DNA of 64,000 nucleotides from Escherichia coli (GCF_003991155.1 NZ_CP031293.1); one strand, 5' to 3'; positions 12,657 to 28,476 are shown, counted from the stretch's first letter. Numbers and translations are program-made. The notes: generated by a model from the sequence alone, not told the origin.

Positions 12657-13664
12657 TTATCGGTAGCGTTTTTGTAGACTGGCTGGAAGATAACGCTGTA
12701 ATGGGGATGGCGTTTCACCTTCAATCAGTTGCGAAATAAGCTCAAAGCAGTGAAAAGCAAGTTGGCGATTATCCTGTTGTATTGTGTCGATTCTTACCGA
12801 AAGTGAATCATACAAGTAATGATCATCAAAACTCGCCAGGTGGATTTTACTGTCGAGTAAATTATATTGGCTCATATAGCGCAGAACGCCTTCCAGTAAT
12901 CCACAAGCGGCAGTGAATAAGGCTTTAGGGGGACGTCCTAAACGAGCGCATAGCGCGGCAAACATTTCATAGCCTGAGCTCGGATGATAATTACCGTGAA
13001 TAATCCATTCAGGTTGTAGCGTTACTCCGGCTTGCTGCAAGCCTTGTGTAAATCCTTCCAGTCGATCGCGAGTCGGTGACAAACGGGGTTGTCCCCCCAG
13101 AAAATAGAATTCATCCGGGTGACTCCGTGCAATATCTGCCACCAGAGCGGTGGTGGGAGAAACAGAGTCAGTAATGACCAATGGCAATGTGCTGCCGTTC
13201 ATGTGGCGATCGAACAACACAACAGGTAATTGCTCGCTAAGTTTTTGATAGTCATTATCATGCAGCATACTGGATGCGACGATTAACCCATCAACCTGGC
13301 GGGCAATCATATTGTTCACCACCATTGTTTCCTGTGAAGGATTTTCATCAGTACAGGATATGAGGAGTTGGACGCCCGCTTCCCGACACAATGTTTCCAG
13401 TTCATGGGAAAATACTGCAAATCCGTAGTTAGTGATTTCAGGAACGACGAGACCAATGGTATGACTGCGGTTGTCCCGTAATGAGCGGGCATGAATGCTG
13501 GGCTGATAATGCTGCTGTTGGGCAATACTCAGCACACGCTCACGCGTTTCCTGCGCAACACGTAACTCTTTGCCACGACCATTGAGAACCAGACTGGCGG
13601 TTGCTTTCGACACTCCCGCCAGTTCAGCAATGTCTTTAATAGTAACGCGTTTGGTTTTTCTCAC
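12657..13664 (-). CDS. scrR: LacI-family sucrose operon repressor
   Basis: 335 aa; N-terminal HTH ([23 protein letters not shown]); position at end of scr operon. Confidence 0.88.
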
Positions 13665-13689
13665 GACGAGGATCCGTAATTCAAAACCC

Positions 13690-15099
13690 TCATTCTACCA
13701 TGCAGGCGCGTAGCGACCAGTAGCGTAACGTGACGTCAGACTCACCCTGTAATATCAGCGAAGCTGGATGATGGGGAAAATAACGATTACTCATTACACC
13801 TTCACCATTATTGATGAATATCTCTACGCTGGAACTGTCACAGAGAATCTTCAGTGACGTTACGCTTCCTCGCCAGTAACGAGTTAGTTTCTCTTGCCCT
13901 GCAAGGCTTCTCCTCTGTAGTTGAATACCATCGTCATTAAGATGCAGTGCCAGCGCATTGCCAAAATTCAGATACAGCTCACCCGACGGAATGATGTCCA
14001 TTTCCAGGCGTTCAATTTCGACATGCGGCGCATGATCTGCTTTTCCTTGCCAGAAGTGTTCAGCTTCACGCAGTTGCGCGAGTTCCCTGATTGGCATCTG
14101 AAACAATTTTCCCTTCTGGAATGAGAGTTCGCGAAAACAGGTCATTTGATGCTGCCAATGATGCTTTCTGGTTGGTTGCAACATCTCTTCGCCATCAGGA
14201 ACCCCCATCCAGCCGACCAGCAATCGTCGCCCGTCCGGGGCTTCCATCGTCTGTGGTGCATAGAATTCAAATCCCGCATCCAGCTCTGAGAAAGCGCCAT
14301 GCGTAAATTTGCCTGTCTCGTAATCAAACTGTCCATGTAGCCAGGCGCAGGGATAAGTATTCAGATAGCGCTCATGTTCGCGCACCATTCCCTGGGGGCA
14401 ACAGAGGAGAATGTATTCACCATCAAGGGCGAAAAAATCAGGACATTCCCACATGTATCCTGCGTTATCTATTTCATTCAGACCGTTACCAGCAATTTCT
14501 CCATGAAAAGACCAGGTATAGAGATCGACAGAGGAATACAGCAGCACTTTCCCCCGTTTCTCTTTATCTTGCGCGCCAAGCACCATGTACCATTGGCTGT
14601 TGTGCTTCCAGACTTTTGGATCACGAACATGTCCGGTGTAACCATCAGGTAACGGTATGACAGGGCCTAGTTTATCAAACCCGCCCTGGTTATTTTCGGT
14701 GGCCAGGCATTGCCATGCCGTTCTGCTGCCATCATCAAACTTAACATTACCGGTATAGCAAAGTGTGAGAACGCCCTGATTATTAACCGCGCTTCCTGAG
14801 TAACAACCATTACGGTCGTACTCTTTATCGGGCATTAGCGCTAATGGTTCATGCTGCCAGTGCAATAAATCCGTCGAACTCCAGTGCCCCCAACATTTGT
14901 ACTTATGATCACAAGCCAGTGGATTCCACTGATAAAACAGATGATAGCGGCCTCCAGACCAGCAAAAGCCATTTGGATCGTTCATTAGTCCAGTGACGGG
15001 AGCGAGATGCCAACAAGGATAGTGGGCATCTGCCAGTACTTTGGACTGACCTTTCATCACTGCCTGTAAAATCGCGGGCATTTGTGAAGGCATCGACAT
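13690..15099 (-). CDS. scrB: sucrose-6-phosphate hydrolase (GH32 invertase)
   Basis: 469 aa; GH32 motif MNDPNGF, WECPD; start overlaps scrA stop. Confidence 0.92.
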
Positions 15100-16469
15100 T
15101 ACTCCTCGTCCGTTTTGTATTTGAGTAATAAAGAGAGGCTAAAAGCGACAGCGAAAGCAATCACCATTCCAATAATATAATTAACCAACGATGTTGGCTG
15201 AACGATTGCCATGCCGGGTATTGCGGTCAGACCAACGGCAGTCATATAAACGTGAACAGAGACAACCCAGGCACCGCCGGCAGCGCCACCAATTAAGGCC
15301 GCAATAAAAGGTTTAACAAAACGAAGGTTGATACCAAAAATAGCGGCTTCAGTAATCCCTAACATTGCGGAAAAGGCCGAGGGTAGGGTGATTGCTTTAA
15401 TTTTTGTATCTTTGGTTTTAAACCATACCGCCAGACATGCACCGCCTTGCGCAACGTTTGCCATTGCCCAAATAGGCAGCAGGAAATTAACACCGATTGC
15501 AGGGTTACCTAAAAGTCCTGCTTCAATTGCGTGGAAGCTATGATGAATACCCGTAATAACAATCGCTGAATATAGTCCGCCGAATAACAACCCTGCTAAC
15601 CAGCCTGCGTGTGCAATCAGCGTGCTGAGAACGAAAGAGATACCGTCACCTAACGCTCGTCCTGCCGGACCAATAATCAAAAGAGCGATAAAGCCAGAAA
15701 TGACGACAGTCAGAAATGGCGTCAGAATGAGATCCAGAGCATCAGGGATAAACCTGCGTAACTGTTTTTCCACTATGCTCATAAACCATACTGCCAGAAG
15801 TACGGGGAAAACCGTTCCCTGATAGCCAATCATGGCGATTTCAAAACCGAAGAAGTTCATTGTCTGAAATCCCGCAGCAACGCCCCAGGCATTTGTGAGT
15901 GCCGGGTGAGTCAGAATCCCTCCTAATGTCGCGCCAAGATAAGGATTTCCACCAAATTCACGAGCAGCAGTAAAGCCAATAAGGATGGGGAGAATAATAA
16001 ATGCGGCTGAACTGCACATATCCAGCAGGATATAAATCGCATTATCGGCATTCACCCAGCCATATATTTTCACCATTCCCAGAAGCCCCATTAATAAACC
16101 AGAAGCAACAATGGCTGGAATGATGGGGACAAAAATATTAGAAAGTAGCCGTGCTATTCGCTGAAAAGGATTGAGTTTTTGAGCGGCGAGTCGAGCGGTA
16201 TCTGCTTTACTGGATTCGCTAATACCTGCAACCTGAATAAAGGCAGCATAGACTTTATTAACCACGCCGGTGCCAAAGATGATTTGCATTTGCCCTGAAT
16301 TACGAAAACAACCTTTCACTCCATCAATCTGGCCAATGGCATGTTGATCGGCAAGTGTGTCGTCAACCAGTACCAGCCGTAGGCGAGTGGCGCAATGTGC
16401 TGCACTGGTGATGTTCTCCTTACCACCTAATAAAGGAAGCAACGATTGGGCGATTTTATCGAAATCCAT
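15099..16469 (-). CDS. scrA: PTS sucrose-specific EIIBC component
   Basis: 456 aa; EIIB Cys motif (AAHCATRLRL) followed by EIIC membrane domain. Confidence 0.92.
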   Translation of the reverse strand: MDFDKIAQSLLPLLGGKENITSAAHCATRLRLVLVDDTLADQHAIGQIDGVKGCFRNSGQMQIIFGTGVVNKVYAAFIQVAGISESSKADTARLAAQKLNPFQRIARLLSNIFVPIIPAIVASGLLMGLLGMVKIYGWVNADNAIYILLDMCSSAAFIILPILIGFTAAREFGGNPYLGATLGGILTHPALTNAWGVAAGFQTMNFFGFEIAMIGYQGTVFPVLLAVWFMSIVEKQLRRFIPDALDLILTPFLTVVISGFIALLIIGPAGRALGDGISFVLSTLIAHAGWLAGLLFGGLYSAIVITGIHHSFHAIEAGLLGNPAIGVNFLLPIWAMANVAQGGACLAVWFKTKDTKIKAITLPSAFSAMLGITEAAIFGINLRFVKPFIAALIGGAAGGAWVVSVHVYMTAVGLTAIPGMAIVQPTSLVNYIIGMVIAFAVAFSLSLLLKYKTDEE

Positions 16470-16529
16470 ATAACCCTCTAATTCATTGTTATTTCAGTAA
16501 AAGCCTCACATCCGTGAGGCTGTCTGGTA

Positions 16530-18071
<1,542 letters not shown>

Positions 18072-18091
18072 TTATAAAAATTGCTAAAATG

Positions 18092-18105
18092 CTAAACCGG
18101 TTTAG
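18092..18105. promoter_or_regulatory. candidate ScrR operator (perfect palindrome CTAAACCGGTTTAG) upstream of scrY
   Basis: 14-bp perfect palindrome in scrK-scrY intergenic region. Confidence 0.6.
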
Positions 18106-18150
18106 GTGTTGATAATAAAGCTGACTTTTTAGCCAGAGCAATTATTTTCG

Positions 18151-18164
18151 CTAAACCGATTTAG
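18151..18164. promoter_or_regulatory. candidate second ScrR operator (CTAAACCGATTTAG)
   Basis: near-perfect copy of the palindrome 59 bp from the first. Confidence 0.55.
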
Positions 18165-18217
18165 TAAATGTGACAGGCACGACAAATCGGGTTACAGATA
18201 CAACAGCAGGATCACTA

Positions 18218-19135
18218 TTATGAAGGGAGATCGTGTTGTCGGGGTAAGGCGGTCATCGCGCCTTTAGCCGTGGTCGCCAGAGCACCACAAATCTGAGCTT
18301 GTGCAATGATTCGTTCAAGCTGTCTGGTATTTGTTGGTATTCCAGAATCAGCCAGACCTGCAAGTAATCCAGCGACAAAAGCATCTCCTGCCCCGGTCGT
18401 ATCGACGACAGAAACAGGTTTGGCGGGATAGTGGATAAACTGCCCCTGAAAATACACAAGTACGCCATTTTTTCCTTGTGTAATAAGCAATAAAGTCAAC
18501 GAATAACGTTGTACTAATGAATATGCGCCTTGCTGAACCTGGCTTTCGCCACTGATGAATAGCAACTCTTCTTCGGACAATTTAGCGATATTCGCCAGCG
18601 AAAGTGCGCGATCAAGGTATTTCCTTAATAGCGCTTCACTCTGCCAGAGATCGCTGCGGATATTGGGATCAAAACTGATGTTTCCGCCAGCCTGACGTAT
18701 TTTCTCCATAGCCAGAAATGCGGTACTTCGGGAAGGTTCTGCACTGAGCGCAATGGAACAAAGATGGAGCCATTCACCCGGCCCAAATGCAGGAAGGTCA
18801 CCAGGTTGTAAAAAAAGATCGGCACTTGGGCGTACCATAAAGGTAAAGTTTCTTTCTCCTTGCTCATCAAGTCCTACAGCCACAATTGAGGTGCGTTGTT
18901 GAGGATCAAGAGACATATAACGTGTATCAACATTTTCTGTACTCAGTGTCTGATACATAAAGCGACCGAAAGGATCATCGCCAACTTTGCCAATAAAGGC
19001 ACTTTTCCCCCCCAGCCTTGCGATACCGACTGCAACATTAGCAGGCGCCCCGCCAGGACACTGTAGTAGTCTCCCCTGGCTTTCGGGTAATAAATCAACA
19101 ACCGCATCACCGAGTACCCATACTCTTGCGCTCAT
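18218..19135 (-). CDS. scrK: fructokinase (PfkB family)
   Basis: 305 aa; PfkB/ribokinase motifs (DTTGAGDAF); first gene of scr cluster; RBS GGAG. Confidence 0.9.
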   Translation of the reverse strand: MSARVWVLGDAVVDLLPESQGRLLQCPGGAPANVAVGIARLGGKSAFIGKVGDDPFGRFMYQTLSTENVDTRYMSLDPQQRTSIVAVGLDEQGERNFTFMVRPSADLFLQPGDLPAFGPGEWLHLCSIALSAEPSRSTAFLAMEKIRQAGGNISFDPNIRSDLWQSEALLRKYLDRALSLANIAKLSEEELLFISGESQVQQGAYSLVQRYSLTLLLITQGKNGVLVYFQGQFIHYPAKPVSVVDTTGAGDAFVAGLLAGLADSGIPTNTRQLERIIAQAQICGALATTAKGAMTALPRQHDLPS

Positions 19136-19299: not shown

Positions 19300-20778
19300 T
19301 TACGCATTCGACCAGCTCTGGATCGAATCTTCATTCCCCAGCTCACCATGCATCACTTCATACGATTTTTTCAGGATCACATCAGTGTGCTTGGTTAGGT
19401 CTTTGAAAATGCCTTTATTCATCGCGTCGTAGCGTTTGGCATTGCTCTCAATCGGTATGAAGATATCTTTCACGCGAACCATTTTATCGACAGCCGTTGC
19501 GTAATCCGGGTATAGCCCCAGACCTACCGCCGTATTGATCGCTGCCCCCAGACTTGCACAACCATTAATGGCGTTACGGCGTGCCGGAAGGTTGAACACG
19601 TCGGCAAAAATCTGCATAAACAGATCGCTGTTCGAACCGCCGCCAGTAATGATCACATGCTTTGCAAAGTGATTCATTTCATTACACATATTGTCGTAAT
19701 TGTTCTTCAGCGTCAGCGCCACGCTTTCCAGTATCGAACGATATATCCATGCGTAATCCATGCTGGAATCAAAGCCGATCATAATCCCGCGTTTGTATGG
19801 TTCCCACGGATTGGTCAGCCAGTCCAGCACCGTCATCAGACCATTACAGCCAGGCGGCACACAAGACGCTTTTTTGTTGAGCAAATCTTCCGGTGAAAGA
19901 TCCTGTGCTTTGGCATCCTGAATTAACGACTCGCCTAGCATGTCGCGTAGCCAGCTCACCGTCCACATGCCTTTGCGAATACCGTAACCTTCATACAGCA
20001 AGGTTTGCGGAATAGAAGACATAATCGGCCAGTACGCTACCGGATCTTTCGGCAGTGCTTTACCGTTCATCATCAGCGCGATGTAGGTGCCAAGAGAAAT
20101 CACCGCCGTTTCATCATCCAGTAATCCGGCTCCCAGAGCTTCTACCGGTTTATCACTGGTGGTACAAACAACCGGCAGCCCAGCCGGGAAATGTGTCGCC
20201 AGCGCGGCTTGACGAGTGATATGCCCAAGAACAGTGCCCGGCATTTGCACATCAAAAAGCATCTGTCGGGGAATATTAAACTTCTCCATTACCGCGGTAT
20301 CTTCGCTCCATGCCCAGGTCTTATAATCCACCGGCCACTGACCAAAATAGTTGGCGATATTGTCTTTAAACTCGCCGGTTAAGCGATGCGTCAGATAACC
20401 TGAAAAAGAGGTGACATATGCCACGTCAGGATTCGTATGTTCGTAAGGGCGTGTAACGCGTGCATCCTGCCAGCTAATCAACGGCGCAGCTGGCGTGCCA
20501 TCGGCTTTCAATAACGCACGGCAGCAACGGATGGATCCCAGACCAATACCGACAATATCTTCTTTATTTCCGGCAAACTGACTCATCAAATCGTGACCGG
20601 CAAAACATAATGATGCCCATAAATCGTCGTCAGGATGTTCTGCGGTATCGGCATCTGGCGTGTGCATCGGCTGCAATAAGCCTTTGCCTTCGCAAACCAC
20701 ATTACCTTCCAGATCGTACATCACCACTTTTGTGCTCTGACTTCCGCCATCAATCCCTATGATGTATTTTTTCGACAT
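19300..20778 (-). CDS. ygcE: FGGY-family carbohydrate kinase
   Basis: 492 aa; FGGY N-terminal motif (IGIDGGSQSTKVV) and C-terminal domain. Confidence 0.88.
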   Translation of the reverse strand: MSKKYIIGIDGGSQSTKVVMYDLEGNVVCEGKGLLQPMHTPDADTAEHPDDDLWASLCFAGHDLMSQFAGNKEDIVGIGLGSIRCCRALLKADGTPAAPLISWQDARVTRPYEHTNPDVAYVTSFSGYLTHRLTGEFKDNIANYFGQWPVDYKTWAWSEDTAVMEKFNIPRQMLFDVQMPGTVLGHITRQAALATHFPAGLPVVCTTSDKPVEALGAGLLDDETAVISLGTYIALMMNGKALPKDPVAYWPIMSSIPQTLLYEGYGIRKGMWTVSWLRDMLGESLIQDAKAQDLSPEDLLNKKASCVPPGCNGLMTVLDWLTNPWEPYKRGIMIGFDSSMDYAWIYRSILESVALTLKNNYDNMCNEMNHFAKHVIITGGGSNSDLFMQIFADVFNLPARRNAINGCASLGAAINTAVGLGLYPDYATAVDKMVRVKDIFIPIESNAKRYDAMNKGIFKDLTKHTDVILKKSYEVMHGELGNEDSIQSWSNA

Positions 20779-20804
20779 GATTTTTCTCCTGTAATTTTCC
20801 TGGC

Positions 20805-22082
20805 TTACTTGCTGCTAGCCATTGCGGGGGCGCTATCAGCAGTACGAATTTTTTGGAACAGCAAAAAGGTAAAGATGATCACCATGGCAAGCGCCGCCAT
20901 GCCCATTAGCCACATGTTGCGGTAGGCTTCTGCAGCGGGCAGGGTGTCTTGCCAGTGGCCGATAATCGGGTAAACGAAGACATCCGGCAGGAATCCAATC
21001 ACCGAACAAATACCTACCGTGGTGCCCATAATGTAAGACGGTGTTCTCGCTTCGCCGGGGCAGGCCCAGTACAGTCCACGTGAGGCGTAGCAGGTGAATC
21101 CCAGTAGTAAAATCAGGCCAATCCCCATAGCGACCGATTGCGGGTTAGAGTTGGTAACAAGCAGGGCAGTCAGTGCCAGCAGGCCGATGATGGAAAGGAT
21201 TTGAATTACGCGGGTAGGGGATTTCACTTTACTGTAGGTGGTGATAATGCCGCCAAGTGGACCACACAGCGCGCGGAATATTTTGTTGATCACAATCCCC
21301 ATGTAGCTCGCCGCCACCAGCGACATGCCGTACATTTCGGTGAGATAGTTGGTGGAGTAACTCAGAATGGCGTAGATGGTGAAGACGCCAAAAATCACCA
21401 TGCTGCAATACCAGGTGGTGCTGATGCGCAAAACGGCCAGGATGTCGCTAAGCTGGAATGATTGTTTTTCTTCGTTATTGGCACTGCGCAGGTTGTTGTT
21501 ATCGCTAACAAAAAACCAGCACAGAATCCCCAACAAGATGTAAACCACACTATAGATGATAATGACCGTTTTCAGGCTGGCGCTGTCATCCGGTGCAAAG
21601 CGAGAAAAGACCCACATGGTAAACACCGCCAGCGACATTACACCGACGCCGCGCAGCCCTTCCATCCAGCCCATAATTTTCCCTTGCTCGCTATGATCGC
21701 CCAGCAACGATGCGGCTTTAATCGACACCGACCACAGCATTAAAATCGTCGTTATCGCAAAGGCAACCTGAATACAGAGCATTACCCACAGCGGTGGATA
21801 AGTTGCCATTAACAGACCCAGTAATCCGGTAATGATCATCGCGGAAGTAATCATTTTGCGATGTGAGAATTTATCGGCAATAACGCCACTGGGCGCATAA
21901 AGAATAATAGCTGCAATACCAAAGGTACTCATTATTAAACCTATCTCGGTATTGCTGAATCCCATAAATTTCGCCATGGGAATTTGATAAATATAACGTA
22001 AATAAGCCAGGTCGAAACTAACGCCGCCGCTAAAACTAATTATCGCGAGGGTTATCCAACGGCGATATGAGTTGTGTTGCAT
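20805..22082 (-). CDS. yqcE: MFS transporter
   Basis: 425 aa, 12 predicted TM segments. Confidence 0.85.
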   Translation of the reverse strand: MQHNSYRRWITLAIISFSGGVSFDLAYLRYIYQIPMAKFMGFSNTEIGLIMSTFGIAAIILYAPSGVIADKFSHRKMITSAMIITGLLGLLMATYPPLWVMLCIQVAFAITTILMLWSVSIKAASLLGDHSEQGKIMGWMEGLRGVGVMSLAVFTMWVFSRFAPDDSASLKTVIIIYSVVYILLGILCWFFVSDNNNLRSANNEEKQSFQLSDILAVLRISTTWYCSMVIFGVFTIYAILSYSTNYLTEMYGMSLVAASYMGIVINKIFRALCGPLGGIITTYSKVKSPTRVIQILSIIGLLALTALLVTNSNPQSVAMGIGLILLLGFTCYASRGLYWACPGEARTPSYIMGTTVGICSVIGFLPDVFVYPIIGHWQDTLPAAEAYRNMWLMGMAALAMVIIFTFLLFQKIRTADSAPAMASSK

Positions 22083-22104: not shown

Positions 22105-22153
22105 ACAAAAAAAGAGAAAAGTAAGCCGCCCTTTCAGGTGGATTACTTTTCTC
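22105..22153 (-). terminator. leader intrinsic terminator/attenuator about 23 nt upstream of yqcE start
   Basis: 11-bp stem GAGAAAAGTAA/TTACTTTTCTC with 18-nt loop, followed on the minus strand by a 7-T run. Confidence 0.6.
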
Positions 22154-22259
22154 AGGTCTCTAGTAATTGCAATAAGAAATAACATGGAAAGCAGTGGTGT
22201 TGTGTGAGAGTAGTCACGCTTCTGCTTTTTAAAATTATTTGATAATACGAATATCACAC

Positions 22260-22275
22260 TGTGATTACGATCACA
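22260..22275. promoter_or_regulatory. CRP binding site (TGTGA-N6-TCACA) in yqcE/ygcW divergent region
   Basis: TGTGATTACGATCACA is a perfect match to both consensus half-sites. Confidence 0.7.
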
Positions 22276-22327
22276 TTAGCGCTTATGCCCTTATGCTAAA
22301 AATTATATCCAGTTACCAGAGATAATG

Positions 22328-22375
22328 AGAAAGGTAACTTCCCTCTCGCGGGGGAAGTTACCTTTCTTTTTTTTT
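22328..22375 (+). terminator. leader intrinsic terminator/attenuator about 24 nt upstream of ygcW start
   Basis: 16-bp perfect stem (GAAAGGTAACTTCCCC / GGGGAAGTTACCTTTC), 7-nt loop, followed by a 9-T run. Confidence 0.75.
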
Positions 22376-22399
22376 GCTTTACGGAAATTGGAGCTAACT

Positions 22400-23185
22400 A
22401 TGTCAATCGAATCTCTCAATGCGTTCTCAATGGATTTTTTCTCCCTGAAAGGTAAAACATCAATTGTTACCGGCGGGAATAGTGGATTAGGCCAGGCATT
22501 TGCCATGGCGCTGGCCAAGGCTGGCGCAAATGTCTTTATTCCAAGTTTCGTCAAAGATAACGGCGAAACAAAGGAAATGATTGAAAAACAGGGTGTTGAA
22601 GTGGACTTCATGCAGGTGGATATCACCGCAGAAGGCGCACCACAGAAGATTATCGCTGCCTGCTGTGAGCGTTTCGGTACCGTCGATATTCTGGTTAACA
22701 ATGCCGGTATATGTAAGCTGAATAAGGTGCTGGACTTCGGGCGTGCCGACTGGGATCCGATGATTGACGTGAACCTTACCGCCGCATTCGAGTTAAGCTA
22801 TGAAGCTGCAAAAATTATGATCCCGCAGAAAAGCGGTAAAATCATTAATATCTGTTCATTATTCTCTTACTTAGGTGGACAATGGTCACCTGCATATTCT
22901 GCCACTAAACATGCTCTTGCCGGATTCACCAAAGCTTATTGTGATGAACTAGGTCAATATAATATTCAGGTAAATGGTATTGCCCCTGGATATTACGCTA
23001 CCGATATCACCCTGGCGACACGCAGTAATCCAGAAACCAATCAGCGCGTTCTTGATCATATTCCAGCAAACCGTTGGGGCGATACTCAGGATTTAATGGG
23101 CGCAGCCGTCTTCCTCGCAAGTCCGGCTTCAAATTATGTTAACGGGCATTTATTAGTGGTCGATGGCGGTTATTTAGTGCGCTAA
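22400..23185 (+). CDS. ygcW: short-chain dehydrogenase/reductase (KduD-like)
   Basis: 261 aa from internal ATG with RBS GGAG; TGGNSGLG Rossmann motif and YxxxK active site. Confidence 0.85.
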   Translation: MSIESLNAFSMDFFSLKGKTSIVTGGNSGLGQAFAMALAKAGANVFIPSFVKDNGETKEMIEKQGVEVDFMQVDITAEGAPQKIIAACCERFGTVDILVNNAGICKLNKVLDFGRADWDPMIDVNLTAAFELSYEAAKIMIPQKSGKIINICSLFSYLGGQWSPAYSATKHALAGFTKAYCDELGQYNIQVNGIAPGYYATDITLATRSNPETNQRVLDHIPANRWGDTQDLMGAAVFLASPASNYVNGHLLVVDGGYLVR

Positions 23186-23254
23186 TCCATAACGGTGGTT
23201 TCTGTTTTCTCTTATTAATGATTATTCTATTTTTATTATCAGGAAGGAATTACT

Positions 23255-24709
23255 ATGTCTTTATCTCGCGCAGCGATTGTCGACCAGCTAAAGGAAATTG
23301 TTGGTGCAGATCGCGTAATTACCGATGAAACAGTATTAAAGAAAAACAGTATTGACCGTTTTCGCAAATTTCCGGATATTCATGGCATTTATACTTTGCC
23401 GATTCCGGCAGCGGTCGTAAAACTCGGTTCCACAGAACAAGTATCCCGTGTGCTGAATTTTATGAATGCGCACAAAATTAACGGTGTGCCGCGTACCGGT
23501 GCTTCCGCTACCGAAGGTGGACTGGAAACCGTTGTGGAAAACTCGGTGGTGCTCGACGGCTCCGCCATGAATCAAATCATTAATATTGATATTGAGAATA
23601 TGCAGGCCACGGCGCAATGTGGCGTTCCGCTGGAAGTGCTGGAAAACGCGTTGCGTGAAAAAGGTTACACCACGGGGCACTCTCCGCAGTCAAAACCGTT
23701 GGCGCAGATGGGTGGACTGGTGGCGACCCGTAGTATCGGGCAGTTCTCCACACTCTACGGCGCAATCGAGGATATGGTCGTTGGTCTGGAAGCAGTATTG
23801 GCTGATGGCACCGTCACACGTATTAAAAACGTGCCACGCCGCGCGGCTGGCCCGGACATTCGTCACATTATCATCGGCAACGAAGGTGCATTGTGCTATA
23901 TCACTGAAGTAACAGTGAAAATCTTTAAGTTCACCCCGGAAAACAACCTCTTCTACGGCTATATCCTGGAAGACATGAAAACCGGCTTCAACATCCTGCG
24001 TGAAATCATGGTGGAAGGGTATCGTCCGTCGATCGCTCGTTTGTATGACGCTGAAGATGGCACCCAACACTTCACCCATTTTGCCGATGGTAAATGTGTG
24101 CTGATCTTTATGGCTGAAGGTAACCCTCGCATTGCGAAGGCGACGGGCGAAGGGATTGCTGAAATCGTGGCACGTTACCCGCAATGCCAGCGCGTGGACA
24201 GTAAGCTGATCGAAACCTGGTTTAATCACCTGAACTGGGGGCCGGATAAAGTGGCTGCCGAACGTGTGCAGATCCTCAAAACCGGCAACATGGGCTTTAC
24301 CACCGAAGTGTCCGGCTGCTGGAGCTGCATCCACGAAATCTACGAAAGCGTTATTAACCGTATTCGTACCGAGTTCGCGCACGCCGACGACATCACCATG
24401 CTGGGCGGTCACTCCTCTCATAGCTATCAGAACGGCACCAACATGTACTTCGTCTACGACTACAACGTCGTTGACTGTAAGCCGGAAGAGGAAATCGACA
24501 AGTACCACAATCCGCTCAACAAAATCATCTGCGAAGAAACCATTCGTCTCGGCGGTTCGATGGTGCACCACCACGGTATCGGTAAACATCGCGTTCACTG
24601 GAGCAAACTGGAACACGGCAGCGCGTGGGCGTTGCTGGAAGGGCTGAAAAAGCAGTTCGATCCTAATGGCATTATGAACACGGGTACTATCTATCCGATT
24701 GAAAAATAA
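23255..24709 (+). CDS. ygcU: FAD-linked oxidase (alkyl-DHAP synthase / D-lactate dehydrogenase-like)
   Basis: 484 aa; FAD-binding PCMH-type domain. Confidence 0.85.
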   Translation: MSLSRAAIVDQLKEIVGADRVITDETVLKKNSIDRFRKFPDIHGIYTLPIPAAVVKLGSTEQVSRVLNFMNAHKINGVPRTGASATEGGLETVVENSVVLDGSAMNQIINIDIENMQATAQCGVPLEVLENALREKGYTTGHSPQSKPLAQMGGLVATRSIGQFSTLYGAIEDMVVGLEAVLADGTVTRIKNVPRRAAGPDIRHIIIGNEGALCYITEVTVKIFKFTPENNLFYGYILEDMKTGFNILREIMVEGYRPSIARLYDAEDGTQHFTHFADGKCVLIFMAEGNPRIAKATGEGIAEIVARYPQCQRVDSKLIETWFNHLNWGPDKVAAERVQILKTGNMGFTTEVSGCWSCIHEIYESVINRIRTEFAHADDITMLGGHSSHSYQNGTNMYFVYDYNVVDCKPEEEIDKYHNPLNKIICEETIRLGGSMVHHHGIGKHRVHWSKLEHGSAWALLEGLKKQFDPNGIMNTGTIYPIEK

Positions 24710-24802
24710 TGTGTCAGGCAGCGTTCCGCGATGACGGTGCGTTGCCTTTTCGGCTTCTCAGGCGAGAAGCCGTTCTTATTACCGGACAATGAAGGGGTAA
24801 AG

Positions 24803-26140
24803 ATGAACACTTCACCGGTGCGAATGGATGATTTACCGCTTAACCGTTTTCACTGTCGAATTGCTGCGCTCACTTTCGGTGCACACCTGACCGACGGTTA
24901 TGTTCTCGGCGTCATTGGTTACGCCATTATTCAGCTTACGCCCGCCATGCAACTGACGCCGTTTATGGCGGGAATGATCGGCGGCTCGGCGTTACTTGGT
25001 TTGTTTCTTGGCAGCCTGGTTTTGGGGTGGATCTCCGACCATATCGGGCGGCAAAAAATCTTCACCTTCAGTTTTATGCTGATTACGCTCGCTTCGTTCT
25101 TGCAATTTTTTGCCACCACGCCAGAGCATCTTATTGGATTGCGCATTTTGATCGGCATTGGTCTGGGAGGCGATTACTCAGTCGGTCACACCTTGCTGGC
25201 TGAATTTTCCCCGCGCCGCCATCGCGGTATTTTGCTGGGCGCATTCAGTGTGGTGTGGACCGTAGGCTATGTGCTGGCAAGTATTGCCGGACATCACTTT
25301 ATTACCGAAAGCCCGGAGGCCTGGCGCTGGCTGCTGGCATCAGCAGCGTTACCAGCCTTGCTGATTACGCTGCTACGTTGGGGCACGCCGGAATCGCCAC
25401 GCTGGCTACTGCGCCAGGGGCGTTTTGCTGAAGCTCACGCTATCGTGCATCGCTACTTTGGTCCCCATGTTTTACTGGGCGATGAAGTGGCAACGGCGAC
25501 CCATAAACACATCAAAACCTTGTTCTCTTCGCGCTACTGGCGGCGCACAGCGTTTAACAGCGTCTTCTTTGTCTGCCTCGTAATCCCATGGTTTGTGATT
25601 TATACCTGGCTGCCAACTATCGCCCAGACTATTGGACTGGAAGATGCGCTGACTGCCAGCCTGATGCTTAATGCGTTGTTAATTGTTGGCGCGCTGCTGG
25701 GATTAGTTCTGACGCACCTGCTGGCACATCGCAAGTTTTTGCTGGGAAGTTTTTTGCTGCTGGCGGCAACGCTGGTAGTGATGGCCTGTTTGCCTTCCGG
25801 CAGTTCATTAACGCTGCTGCTTTTTGTTCTCTTCAGCACCACCATTTCGGCAGTCAGTAATCTGGTGGGCATTTTGCCTGCGGAAAGTTTTCCTACTGAC
25901 ATTCGCTCGCTGGGCGTCGGTTTTGCCACCGCCATGAGTCGGCTCGGCGCGGCGGTAAGCACTGGTCTGCTGCCGTGGATTCTGGCGCAGTGGGGGATGC
26001 CGGTCACTTTATTGCTTCTGGCGGCAGTGTTGTTGGTTGGTTTTGTTGTGACCTGGTTATGGGCGCCAGAAACCAAAGCTCTCCCGCTGGTGGCGGCGGG
26101 AAATGTAGGAGGTGCGAATGAACATTCTGTTAGCGTTTAA
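24803..26140 (+). CDS. ygcS: MFS transporter
   Basis: 445 aa from internal ATG (RBS GAAGGGG); multiple TM segments. Confidence 0.83.
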   Translation: MNTSPVRMDDLPLNRFHCRIAALTFGAHLTDGYVLGVIGYAIIQLTPAMQLTPFMAGMIGGSALLGLFLGSLVLGWISDHIGRQKIFTFSFMLITLASFLQFFATTPEHLIGLRILIGIGLGGDYSVGHTLLAEFSPRRHRGILLGAFSVVWTVGYVLASIAGHHFITESPEAWRWLLASAALPALLITLLRWGTPESPRWLLRQGRFAEAHAIVHRYFGPHVLLGDEVATATHKHIKTLFSSRYWRRTAFNSVFFVCLVIPWFVIYTWLPTIAQTIGLEDALTASLMLNALLIVGALLGLVLTHLLAHRKFLLGSFLLLAATLVVMACLPSGSSLTLLLFVLFSTTISAVSNLVGILPAESFPTDIRSLGVGFATAMSRLGAAVSTGLLPWILAQWGMPVTLLLLAAVLLVGFVVTWLWAPETKALPLVAAGNVGGANEHSVSV

Positions 26141-26897
26141 AGCCGAACCGGATGCCGGAATGCTGGCGGAAAAAGAGTGGCAGGCGGCGGCTCAGGGTAA
26201 TATTGGACCAGATGTTTCGCTACTGCGAAGTTTACTCGGTGCTGATGAACAGGCTGCCGCCGCGCTGCTGTTGGCGCAGAGAAAAAACGGTACGCCGATG
26301 TCTTTAACCGCGTTGAGCATGGGGGATGAACGGGCGTTGCACTGGCTGCGCTATCTCATGGCTCTTGGGTTTGAGGACGCTGTATTGCTGGAGACGGTGG
26401 CAGATCTGCGCTTTGCGCCGGAATTTGTCGCTCGCCATATTGCCGAATGGCAGCGTCAGAATCCGCTGGATCTGATAATTACCGGCTGCCAAAGCAGCGA
26501 AGGGCAGAATGGGCAAACGCCATTTTTGCTGGCGGAAATGCTGGGCTGGCCCTGCTTCACCCAGGTGGAGCGTTTTACTCTCGACGCGCCGTTTATCACC
26601 CTTGAACAGCGTACTGAACATGGGCTGCGCTGTTACCGGGTTCGCTTGCCTGCGGTGATTGCCGTGCGCCAGTGTGGTGAAGTGGCCTTGCCAGTACCGG
26701 GAATGCGCCAGCGAATGGCTGCGGGGAAAGCAGAAATTATCCGTAAAACTGTTGCTGTCGAATTGCCAGCGATGCAGTGTCTGCAACTGGCAAGAGCAGA
26801 GCAACGACGCGGAGCGACGCTGATTGATGGGCAAACGGTAGCAGAAAAAGCGCAAAAGCTATGGCAGGACTATTTACGCCAAAGGATGCAGCCATGA
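26118..26897 (+). CDS. ygcR: electron transfer flavoprotein beta-subunit-like protein
   Basis: about 259 aa; ETF-beta-like; RBS AGGAGG 6 nt upstream of ATG at 26118. Confidence 0.8.
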   Translation: MNILLAFKAEPDAGMLAEKEWQAAAQGNIGPDVSLLRSLLGADEQAAAALLLAQRKNGTPMSLTALSMGDERALHWLRYLMALGFEDAVLLETVADLRFAPEFVARHIAEWQRQNPLDLIITGCQSSEGQNGQTPFLLAEMLGWPCFTQVERFTLDAPFITLEQRTEHGLRCYRVRLPAVIAVRQCGEVALPVPGMRQRMAAGKAEIIRKTVAVELPAMQCLQLARAEQRRGATLIDGQTVAEKAQKLWQDYLRQRMQP

Positions 26898-27754
26898 ATA
26901 TCGCCATTGTGACAATAAATCAGGAGAATGCCGCAATAGCGAGCTGGCTGGCGGCACAGGATTTCAGCGGTTGTACCCTGGCGCACTGGCAGATTGAACC
27001 TCAGCCCGTAGTGGCGGAACAGGTGCTGGATGCGTTGGTGGAACAGTGGCAGCGAACGCCAGCGGACGTTGTTCTCTTTCCGCCGGGAACGTTTGGTGAT
27101 GAACTGTCGACACGGCTGGCCTGGCGTTTACATGGTGCAAGCATCTGCCAGGTGACTTCATTAGATATTCCAACCGTAAACGTACGCAAATCCCACTGGG
27201 GAAATGCGCTAACGGCGACGCTGCAAACAGAAAAACGCCCGCTATGCCTTTCCCTTGCCCGCCAGGCGGGAGCAGTGAAAAACGCCACATTGCCCTCTGG
27301 TATGCAGCAACTGAACATTGTCCCCGGCGCGCTTCCCGACTGGCTGGTTAGCACAGAGGATCTGAAAAATGTTACCCGTGACCCATTAGCTGAGGCCAGA
27401 CGGGTGCTGGTGGTGGGGCAGGGCGGAGAGGCAGATAACCAGGAAATCGCTATGCTGGCAGAAAAGCTGGGAGCCGAAGTGGGCTACAGTCGGGCGCGAG
27501 TAATGAACGGTGGCGTTGATGCCGAAAAAGTGATTGGTATTTCCGGACATCTGCTGGCACCTGAGGTGTGTATTGTTGTTGGCGCTTCTGGCGCAGCAGC
27601 GTTAATGGCAGGCGTATGCAATAGCAAGTTTGTGGTGGCGATTAATCATGACGCCAGCGCAGCGATATTTTTACAGGCAGATGTTGGCGTGGTTGATGAC
27701 TGGAAAGCGGTGCTGGAGGCACTGGTGACAAACATTCACGCAGATTGCCAATAA
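26894..27754 (+). CDS. ygcQ: electron transfer flavoprotein alpha-subunit-like protein
   Basis: 286 aa; ETF-alpha C-terminal FAD-binding region; start overlaps ygcR stop. Confidence 0.8.
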   Translation: MNIAIVTINQENAAIASWLAAQDFSGCTLAHWQIEPQPVVAEQVLDALVEQWQRTPADVVLFPPGTFGDELSTRLAWRLHGASICQVTSLDIPTVNVRKSHWGNALTATLQTEKRPLCLSLARQAGAVKNATLPSGMQQLNIVPGALPDWLVSTEDLKNVTRDPLAEARRVLVVGQGGEADNQEIAMLAEKLGAEVGYSRARVMNGGVDAEKVIGISGHLLAPEVCIVVGASGAAALMAGVCNSKFVVAINHDASAAIFLQADVGVVDDWKAVLEALVTNIHADCQ

Positions 27755-27756
27755 CG

Positions 27757-27867
27757 TGTTGCCGGATGATCCTGCCTACGGTTCTGGCCTGGGGACTTGT
27801 AAGCCTGATAAGACGCGTCAAGCGTCGCATCAGGCGCTGAATGTCGGATGTGGCGTGCAGCCTACAA
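27757..27867. repeat. REP/BIME repetitive extragenic palindromes
   Basis: GCCGGATG...CCTAC and GCCTGATAAGACGCG...GCGTCGCATCAGGC motifs between convergent ygcQ and ygcP. Confidence 0.75.
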
Positions 27868-27900: not shown

Positions 27901-28476
27901 TCAAAGCAATTTTTTCGCTAATGTCCAGACCCCGGTATTCGTGGTGGAAAGCGCCACGACACCTGCGTTAATCGCATTACGCGCATCTTCTTCATCGCAC
28001 ACCAGCCCGCCAGCAATCAGCGGTTGGCGGATTTTCTCCGTCACCCAGCCCAGCACTTTGGGCATACAGCCAGGCAGGATCTCAATACAATCCGGATTCG
28101 ATTGCGCAACTTGCTTATCAATGTTGTGAAACGAAATCGAATCAACAATAAACAGGCGATGAATACAGAAAAAACCTTCCGCTCTTGCTGCTTTCAGCAT
28201 CGATGCTTTCGTGCTGATAATGCCGTCCGCCTCGGTCACCAGTTTCAGAAACTGAATCACCACTTCTTTGTTCGATGCGCCTTCCAGCAAATCGACATGA
28301 ATAAATGCATATTTCCCGGCACTTTTAATCTTTTTGACGATATGACTGATGGTGCAGATATTGCCGTACAACACGGAAATAAACTGGCATTCAGAGTCGA
28401 TTGCCAGTTGCAGGCTGGCATTATCTTTAACGGCAGCAATCACCGGATTCTGGCGGAGCAGGTGTAAGAGGGGCAT
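27901..28476 (-). CDS. ygcP: GlpP-family (glycerol-3-phosphate-responsive type) RNA-binding antiterminator
   Basis: 191 aa with GlpP-like sequence. Confidence 0.8.
   Translation of the reverse strand: MPLLHLLRQNPVIAAVKDNASLQLAIDSECQFISVLYGNICTISHIVKKIKSAGKYAFIHVDLLEGASNKEVVIQFLKLVTEADGIISTKASMLKAARAEGFFCIHRLFIVDSISFHNIDKQVAQSNPDCIEILPGCMPKVLGWVTEKIRQPLIAGGLVCDEEDARNAINAGVVALSTTNTGVWTLAKKLL

Follow-up and report, generated by a model that had tools for sequence, protein, structure and literature searches.

The closest described relatives of the system analysed here are the GlpP-controlled leaders of Bacillus subtilis. GlpP together with glycerol-3-phosphate binds the glpD antiterminator, and the GlpP family comprises RNA-binding antiterminators (PMC7430163, PMC9604022). 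In the 5′ untranslated region (UTR) of B. subtilis glpD, whose sequence is given in the supplement of PMC9604022, a GGUC/GACC helix closes the loop CUGAGAUGAGGAGA, and the terminator arm begins with the GACC strand. Here we analyse the divergent ygcW/yqcE region of Escherichia coli, contained in a stretch of 64,000 nucleotides (nt) from NZ_CP031293.1, which we call the window. The layout of this locus parallels that of the glp genes: a transporter and an FGGY kinase (yqcE and ygcE) lie in one putative leader-controlled operon, a flavin adenine dinucleotide (FAD)-dependent dehydrogenase lies in the other, and a GlpP homologue, ygcP, is encoded nearby. Both operons are preceded by copies of one leader motif of ~65 nt that can adopt two mutually exclusive folds, a terminator and a weak upstream hairpin, P1. 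We consider it probable, from the sequence comparisons below, that YgcP, presumably aided by a phosphorylated YgcE product, stabilises P1 and thereby prevents termination.

A strong intrinsic terminator lies ahead of each operon, one per strand, as the original prediction had claimed (Table 1). The plus-strand hairpin before ygcW has 19 pairs, 16 of them consecutive Watson–Crick pairs, with a 4-nt loop and a run of nine T. The minus-strand hairpin before yqcE has an 11-bp lower stem, an interrupted upper stem and a run of seven T. On both strands 24 nt separate the T-run from the ATG, in line with the predicted spacing of about 22–24 nt; the ygcW start codon itself is at 22400 and not, as first given, at 22401. 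Folding of the two leaders, which had been proposed as a check, gave −34.7 kcal/mol for the plus-strand hairpin (z = −5.7; none of 200 shuffles equalled it) and −21.8 kcal/mol for the minus-strand one (z = −3.6; one of 200 shuffles was as good). A terminator scan returned 7 sites in 1.5 kb, against 1.5 expected. The search for short terminated leader transcripts, another proposed check, can draw on published Term-seq data from strain MG1655 grown in lysogeny broth (LB). For ygcW, an RNA 3′ end lies 38 nt ahead of the gene (40,640 reads; intrinsic terminator score 15.8), and for yqcE the distance is 36 nt (1,557 reads; score 11.4); neither end is classed as Rho-dependent, and the accompanying table gives no regulatory element for either (PMC7815308).

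The two hairpins share the pattern GAGAAARGUAA...UUACYUUUCU, which had no match in 100 shuffles of the window, and both leaders also carry an upstream box, RUUACYAGAGA. The full consensus reads, from position +1 to +3, RUUACY, 0–4 nt, AGAG, N3-5, GAGAAARGUAAY, a variable GC-rich stem-loop, RCYUUUCUC and U6-9. The spacers between the conserved GAG elements vary (~1–6 and 3–7 nt), which fits a protein site built of short repeats. The upstream box can pair with the middle of the terminator 5′ arm (RUUACY with RGUAAY) to form P1, so that an alternative element overlapping the terminator 5′ arm is present in both leaders; we infer that P1 is the protein-binding site. A scan against Rfam 15 at permissive E-values gave best scores of 13–24 bits, compared with gathering scores of 39–115, all from unrelated families.

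Covariation supports both folds. P1 is paired in 98% of cases in an independent MAFFT alignment and in 95.5% in a larger one, which was fitted to the terminator with the P1 helix outside the model; with the partner strand slid, pairing falls to 16–64%, although related sequences inflate such shuffle statistics. Up to 4 of the 6 P1 pairs have changed on both sides. Compensatory exchanges include A-U for G-C at the outer pair and U-A for C-G at the inner pair, with GUUGC:GCGAC found in two lineages and CUACC:GGUAG in a single one. For the terminator stem, pairing over 76 distinct sequences reaches 90.6% (57–69% with the partner slid), with both-side changes at 11 of 17 pairs, such as GAGAUAAG/CUUAUCU, GAGAACAG/CUGUUCUC and GAGGAUAG/CUGUCCUC. 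The terminator fold leaves the final two bases of GUAAC unpaired in 27 and 48 of these 76 sequences; in P1 they are paired in nearly all. Since UAAC is often unpaired in the terminator and almost always paired in P1, its conservation is not explained by the terminator alone.

In the nascent RNA, transcribed as far as the 3′ strand of P1, this helix has a folding energy of −6.7 kcal/mol in the ygcW leader, where it is the minimum-energy fold, and of −1.4 kcal/mol in the yqcE leader; the upper GC stem is able to form beside it. The full leaders fold as terminators, at −33.8 kcal/mol (ygcW) and −20.7 kcal/mol (yqcE). The complete leader thus prefers the terminator over the weak P1, which suggests that the default state is OFF and that relief needs a trans-acting stabiliser of P1. 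The first 12 nt of the terminator 5′ arm lie within P1 and its loop; if P1 were held, only the upper stem could form, 12 nt from the U-tract and too far from it to terminate.

Promoter elements lie at a fixed distance upstream of the motif in more than 70 instances. In Gammaproteobacteria, a TGnTA extended −10 element stands at a fixed distance from RUUAC, and a CRP-like box lies upstream of essentially every leader copy, with its centre 43.5–45.5 nt before RUUAC in more than 45 copies. In Firmicutes and Spirochaetes, TTGACA-17-TATAAT occupies the same position before the leader. This conserved spacing would place the transcription start 1–3 nt before RUUAC and the CRP box near −41.5. A perfect CRP palindrome between the leaders had been predicted as a single site for both. 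The palindrome (box 1) is present; the measured distances tie it to the ygcW promoter, and a second box, 57 bp away, would serve yqcE. We therefore replaced the shared site by one box per promoter, an arrangement that is conserved in other Gammaproteobacteria.

CRP control of this region, also part of the original prediction, is already known from published work. A CRP site was predicted there in 2007 (PMC1794230), box 1 was bound in chromatin immunoprecipitation (PMC4287617) and in vitro with a dissociation constant of ~1.7 nM (PMC12871828), and yqcE-ygcE is listed as Crp-activated (PMC8085971). The published binding that we have seen concerns box 1, and box 2 is a predicted CRP site. A separate sigma-70-like match, TTCTCA-18-TATAAT (10 of 12 positions), lies on the minus strand at 22302–22331 of the window, inside the ygcW leader and pointing to yqcE. 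Its K-12 version, TTCTCA-18-GATAAT, was proposed as the yqcE promoter in a study using genomic SELEX (systematic evolution of ligands by exponential enrichment; PMC3946193). The TTCTCA −35 element is the complement of the conserved UGAGAA core, and transcripts from that promoter would still cross the yqcE leader.

To follow the motif across bacteria, we scanned genomes with a YgcP alignment, which yielded 80 loci, and built a covariance model (R1) from 41 enterobacterial motif copies. R1 detects the motif, in at least five phyla, in all ygcP loci whose sequence covers the region upstream of ygcW; the ygcP loci without a match are contigs that end before this region. The taxa comprise, among Proteobacteria, Enterobacterales and the Vibrionaceae Vibrio and Photobacterium; among Firmicutes, the Bacilli Halobacillus, Thalassobacillus and Gracilibacillus, several Clostridia and Tissierellia, and Sporomusa (Negativicutes); and, beyond these, an Anaerolineaceae genome (Chloroflexi), Spirochaetes and Saccharopolyspora (Actinobacteria). 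A ygcP locus usually has two or three copies, each heading a transcription unit. The motif heads the ygcW unit everywhere and, in split clusters, also extra units (ygcU, yqcE or ygcE, other transporters).

The cluster core of ygcW, ygcE, ygcU, usually ygcR/ygcQ, and ygcP is conserved across phyla, with ygcU (a GlcD-like FAD oxidase) and ygcE linked to ygcP in all taxa examined. From E. coli to Firmicutes, Spirochaetes and Actinobacteria, ygcP is the sole conserved regulator-like gene of the cluster. In the loci compared across phyla, ygcP itself is not preceded by the motif. A third, autoregulatory leader before ygcN-ygcO-ygcP was considered and rejected: the 77-nt gap after queD has no hairpin, and R1 matches only the ygcW and yqcE leaders in the 64-kb window. 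By BLAST, E. coli carries the motif at these two leaders only, in 5,063 of 5,426 complete genomes (median of two places per genome), and none was found on E. coli plasmids.

Clusters that lack ygcP provide the complementary comparison. We found them by searching with YgcU representatives and inspecting the context of the closest full-length relatives. The high-GC cluster L100 (YgcW 60%, YgcU 57% and YgcE 44% identical to the E. coli proteins) carries an IclR-type regulator and no PF04309 gene within 10 kb. An IclR-type regulator also accompanies L097 (YgcW 59%, YgcU 48%, fragments of YgcE), a GntR-type regulator L098 (YgcU 45%, a distant FGGY kinase 21% identical to YgcE) and a YhfZ-type regulator L099 (YgcU 44%, YgcE 44%, an electron transfer flavoprotein (ETF)), none of these three loci containing a PF04309 gene. 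R1, run with filters off at E ≤ 1, returned zero matches in all four clusters, and it detects the motif in the ygcP-carrying actinobacterium Saccharopolyspora. A motif scan of metagenomes gave seven loci, five of them ygc clusters, and all four informative ones carry ygcP. Two identical ORF (open reading frame)-poor contigs were discarded as chance matches, having no terminator after the match. The motif is thus present with ygcP and absent where only the enzymes remain; it follows ygcP, as a regulator–target pair predicts. On these sequence comparisons, the coupling argues against both an enzymatic role of YgcP and an autonomous riboswitch.

The leader module also flanks the divergent region in Lelliottia and, at a greater evolutionary distance, in Leminorella; in Leminorella, Limnobaculum and Budvicia, the two leaders are nearly identical 70-nt inverted copies. 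In Leminorella richardii, yqcE and ygcR are each represented by two adjacent ORFs (L004, 12257–13098 and 17290–18578), suggesting frameshifts or decay, and both leaders are intact and nearly identical. In Limnobaculum eriocheiris (L041, 13880–13951), the ygcW/yqcE gap is ~70 nt long and contains a single hairpin with an A-run on one side and a T-run on the other; P1 boxes and promoters are missing. This collapsed gap may reflect a rearrangement between near-identical inverted leader copies such as those seen in its relatives (L044, L049). A locus titled Chryseobacterium sp. 18061 (L029) contains a ygc cluster ~90% identical to that of Enterobacteriaceae and is probably a contamination or a mislabelled assembly.

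YgcP was correctly named as a GlpP-family protein. Its residues 12–184 match PF04309 over its full length (positions 1–173 of 173, E = 2.8e-62), and its profile matches solved GlpP-like proteins, namely Listeria 3KTS (E = 5e-41) and 1VKF (E = 2e-24). The leaders of Shouchella glpD and Metabacillus glpF, located beside canonical glpP genes, have a layout like that of B. subtilis glpD; the Listeria GlpP locus (L087) has no glp genes nearby and hence no leader for comparison. All three canonical glp leaders begin with AGUUA(A), and the ygc leaders with AGUUAC. In the B. subtilis glpD 5′ UTR, as in L088 (4228–4318) and L086 (3201–3292), a 4-bp helix overlapping the terminator closes a loop that contains UGAG..GAG repeats. 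AGUUA(A) and the UGAG..GAG loop may together constitute a definable canonical GlpP box, which we did not find catalogued. Sequence homology between the ygc and the canonical glp leaders was considered and rejected, as R1 fails to detect it; what they share is the 5′ AGUUA, the GAG repeats and the architecture.

Taken together, these features suggest the following model. Each divergent ygc operon would be transcribed from its own CRP-dependent promoter, with the CRP box at about −41.5 from the predicted start, and each transcript would begin, within 1–3 nt, with the ~65-nt regulatory leader. By default, the leader would fold as a terminator, and transcription would end ~25 nt before the start codon. 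Alternatively, the first 30 nt could form the weak P1, RUUACY paired with RGUAAY around the GA-rich loop AGAG-N3-5-GAGAAA. YgcP, a triosephosphate isomerase (TIM) barrel, would bind and hold P1 and its loop, allowing RNA polymerase to read through. By analogy with GlpK, glycerol-3-phosphate and GlpP, YgcP would be active when loaded with a phosphorylated metabolite produced by YgcE. Glycerol-3-phosphate itself is unlikely to be this ligand, because the pathway has a short-chain dehydrogenase/reductase (SDR), a GlcD-like FAD oxidase and an ETF. Since the transporter and kinase genes are themselves preceded by a leader, induction would reinforce itself, as it does for B. subtilis glpFK. Antitermination control of both operons, as originally proposed, is supported by the position of the promoters, the Term-seq ends, the covarying P1 and the glpD-like architecture. 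The choice of YgcP as the likely effector gains support from the co-occurrence of motif and ygcP across phyla and from the absence of the motif in related clusters without ygcP.

Some points weigh against this model or temper it. It is built on sequence and published data, from which we infer that YgcP binds the RNA and what its ligand is; the effect of YgcP on readthrough is a prediction, and so are the exact transcription starts upstream of both hairpins (about 2900503–2900505 on the plus strand and about 2900362–2900364 on the minus strand of MG1655). The Term-seq 3′ ends, located on K-12 (MG1655 2900556 plus, 2900311 minus) and corresponding to about 22362 (+) and 22118 (−) of the window, fall inside the 3′ arms of the stems, directly after ...GUUACC and ...CUUACUUUU, and not in the U-tracts, 5–13 nt before the expected release point. 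This could be due to exonucleolytic trimming through the A/U-rich lower stem or to degradation of RNA in the P1 form. YgcP is only ~30% identical to a canonical Bacillaceae GlpP. With R1, the Metabacillus glpF leader reaches 15.4 bits (E = 0.2), and the Shouchella glpD leader is not ranked. Most of the co-occurrence sample came from the ygcP search, and the reverse test is small, comprising five metagenome matches and four ygcP-less clusters, some of which possibly act on other substrates.

We weighed four other explanations. The leader could be a riboswitch whose P1 and GA-loop bind a pathway metabolite directly, leaving YgcP as an enzyme or in some other role. Two exclusive folds with a conserved unpaired core, the constant occurrence of the motif within one catabolic cluster and a weak similarity of the YgcP TIM barrel to HisF-type phosphate-binding enzymes would agree with this. 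The element is, however, tiny, a 5–7-bp helix and a 14–20-nt loop with variable spacers, without additional conserved helices or a pseudoknot and without an Rfam family match. Moreover, the GlpP family is one of established RNA-binding antiterminators (PMC7430163, PMC9604022), and where clusters retain the enzymes without ygcP, the motif is absent too and a DNA-binding regulator takes the place of ygcP. We therefore regard a riboswitch as unlikely, and we find its boldest form, an orphan riboswitch for a phosphorylated intermediate of the YgcW/YgcE/YgcU pathway with the GlpP-like protein as an accessory factor or enzyme, no easier to credit. It is quite unlikely, too, that the leaders are antitermination targets of another RNA-binding factor and that the linkage to ygcP merely reflects a shared pathway. 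Binding of YgcP to the leader is a sequence-based prediction, and the sequence of the ygc motif is not that of canonical GlpP targets, both of which leave room for another factor; yet no other regulator-like gene is conserved in the cluster, and presence of the motif tracks ygcP.

That the hairpins are unregulated, serving as constitutive attenuators, 5′ stabilisers or terminators of trans-acting leader small RNAs (sRNAs) while CRP alone governs induction at the promoter, appears very unlikely to us. The short RNA 3′ ends are abundant in LB, the lower stem and U-tract resemble an Hfq-type sRNA terminator, and CRP control is documented. Unregulated hairpins would nevertheless leave unexplained the covarying P1 that competes with the terminator, the conserved UAAC that is unpaired in it and the strict linkage to ygcP, and a terminator of −34 kcal/mol with a 9-U tract would keep the operon almost silent unless a relief mechanism existed. 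An explanation at the DNA level, with the repeats as operators of a dimeric DNA-binding protein or as remnants of a mobile or duplicated inverted repeat, is suggested by the mirror-image arrangement and the near-identical inverted copies in Leminorella, Limnobaculum and Budvicia. We find it hardly credible, as the orientation to the downstream gene is constant, the U-tract occurs only on the transcribed strand and Firmicutes have single copies with no mirror partner. The stem tolerates G-U pairs (13 cases of G-U at the closing pair and 17 of U-G at another), which fits pairing in RNA and not in DNA; no DNA-binding regulator is conserved in the cluster; and the motif occurs in two copies per E. 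coli genome and on no plasmid.

The features of the locus are collected in Table 1. Gene names were taken from the annotated E. coli strain 2016C-3878, which is 100% identical over the region, and from our own list of ORFs; most other E. coli, K-12 included, are 96–98% identical here. YgcE, YgcU, YgcW, YqcE and YgcS all score below the NCBIfam equivalog cut-offs, so the substrate could not be named. Leader-peptide attenuation through an in-frame AUG at 22325 (ORF 22325–23185) was considered and rejected: this AUG sits in the AUGAGAAA core and is AAG, ACG or CCG in other taxa. Given that lack of conservation, the 286-aa extended ygcW ORF is very likely not real. Between queE and ygcE, the window contains a sucrose phosphotransferase system (PTS) set at 12657–19135 (a LacI-type regulator, sucrose-6-phosphate hydrolase, PTS IIBC, a porin and a sugar kinase), an insert that we take to be absent from K-12. 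Repeats resembling repetitive extragenic palindromic elements, gcctgataagacgcgtcaagcgtcgcatcaggc, lie at 27760–27850 in the convergent ygcQ/ygcP gap.

Table 1. Coordinates of genes and of observed or predicted regulatory features in the window.
Feature	Position	Strand	Description
ygcE	19300–20778	−	FGGY kinase; annotation and ORF list
yqcE	20805–22082	−	major facilitator superfamily (MFS) transporter; ATG at 22082
yqcE-ygcE operon	19300–22082	−	proposed leader-regulated unit: transporter and FGGY kinase
yqcE leader RNA motif	22106–22170	−	R1 73.0 bits, E = 1.5e-12; terminator stem 22153 to 22114, 7-U tract 22113 to 22107
yqcE P1	22167 to 22142	−	candidate helix: AUUACU 22167 to 22162 with AGUAAU 22147 to 22142
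Predicted extended −10, yqcE promoter	22176–22184	−	TGtTATTTC; predicted start ~22170–22168, from conserved spacing
CRP box 2	22203–22218		TGTGAGAGTAGTCACG; 9 of 10 consensus positions; centre 43.5 nt upstream of AUUACU of the yqcE leader
CRP box 1	22260–22275		TGTGATTACGATCACA; perfect palindrome; centre 44.5 nt upstream of GUUACC of the ygcW leader, ~−41.5 from the predicted start
Predicted extended −10, ygcW promoter	22294–22302	+	TGcTAAAAA; predicted start ~22309–22311, from conserved spacing
ygcW leader RNA motif	22309–22376	+	from ~+1 to the end of the U-tract; R1 81.6 bits, E = 2e-14; aligned with 76 other instances
ygcW candidate antiterminator hairpin P1	22311–22339	+	AGUUACC 22311–22317 with GGUAACU 22333–22339; GA-rich loop AGAGAUAAUGAGAAA 22318–22332
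ygcW leader intrinsic terminator	22327–22375	+	19-pair stem (22327–22368) and 9-U tract (22367–22375); 5′ arm overlaps the P1 loop and the P1 3′ strand
ygcW	22400–23185	+	SDR; ATG at 22400
ygcU, ygcS, ygcR, ygcQ	up to 27754	+	FAD oxidase; MFS; ygcR/ygcQ, ETF
ygcW-ygcU-ygcS-ygcR/ygcQ operon	22400–27754	+	proposed leader-regulated unit
ygcP	27901–28476	−	191 aa, GlpP family (PF04309); last gene of ygcN-ygcO-ygcP; proposed antiterminator
ygcO, ygcN	beyond ygcP	−	annotation
queD	beyond ygcN	−	annotation

In our literature search, no publication connected ygcP with these leaders or reported the motif. Mechanisms of this kind are known; what is new is the RNA class, its breadth across phyla and its presence in E. 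coli under CRP control. To our knowledge, the ygc genes have long stood as a block without an assigned function in E. coli K-12, and knowledge of their induction is limited to CRP. If the model is correct, we know of no earlier description of GlpP-family antitermination in a proteobacterium, and the ygc leaders would be among the very few protein-mediated leader antiterminators in E. coli that we are aware of besides BglG. The motif is an uncatalogued cis-regulatory RNA element that extends from Enterobacterales to Firmicutes, Chloroflexi, Spirochaetes and Actinobacteria. As the RNA elements are defined, YgcP is a candidate regulator and the inducer is predicted to be a product of YgcE, a leader–reporter fusion could be used to screen for the substrate of this sugar-like pathway. 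The compact consensus and its natural variation could also reveal how GlpP-type TIM barrels recognise RNA, which we did not find resolved in the literature.

Antitermination of the BglG type, in which a protein stabilises a hairpin, is the classic example of such logic in E. coli. As with BglG, SacY and LicT on the ribonucleic antiterminator (RAT; E. coli bgl, B. subtilis sac and lic), the candidate ygc antiterminator hairpin overlaps the 5′ arm of a terminator in the leader of a catabolic operon. The regulators differ, YgcP having a TIM-barrel fold; among the annotated or Pfam-typed genes of the ygc cluster, we found no CAT-PRD protein and no PTS-dependent phosphorylation module. In a comparison with the RAT consensus made by eye and not with a formal RAT model, the leader shares only GUUACU. 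HutP and TRAP, which read NAG and GAG triplets, resemble the proposed system in controlling a leader terminator through unpaired GAG elements with short variable spacers. The ygc leader has only two GAG elements in one hairpin loop, compared with 6–11 repeats, and the protein families are unrelated; furthermore, TRAP promotes termination, the opposite of what we propose for YgcP. Transcriptional riboswitches likewise have two exclusive folds, a default OFF state and a position at the very 5′ end of the mRNA of a metabolic operon, whereas the ygc leader has neither an aptamer-sized conserved structure nor an Rfam match and is tied to a dedicated regulator gene.

The B. subtilis GlpP system (glpD, glpFK, glpTQ) is the nearest counterpart. 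In both systems the regulator, or for ygc the putative regulator, belongs to PF04309, an intrinsic terminator lies in the 5′ UTR, and a short helix with a GA-rich loop stands upstream, its 3′ strand forming the start of the terminator 5′ arm. Both also place a transporter with an FGGY kinase and an FAD-dependent dehydrogenase behind such leaders, and in both the regulator gene has no leader of its own. The RNA elements differ in sequence, the ygc leaders combining RUUACY/RGUAAY with GAGAAAAG and the glp leaders GGUC/GACC-type helices with UGAG..GAGGAGA. Unlike the B. subtilis system, the ygc promoters in Gammaproteobacteria are predicted to be CRP-dependent and of class II, and the ygc system reaches into Gram-negative bacteria and at least five phyla.

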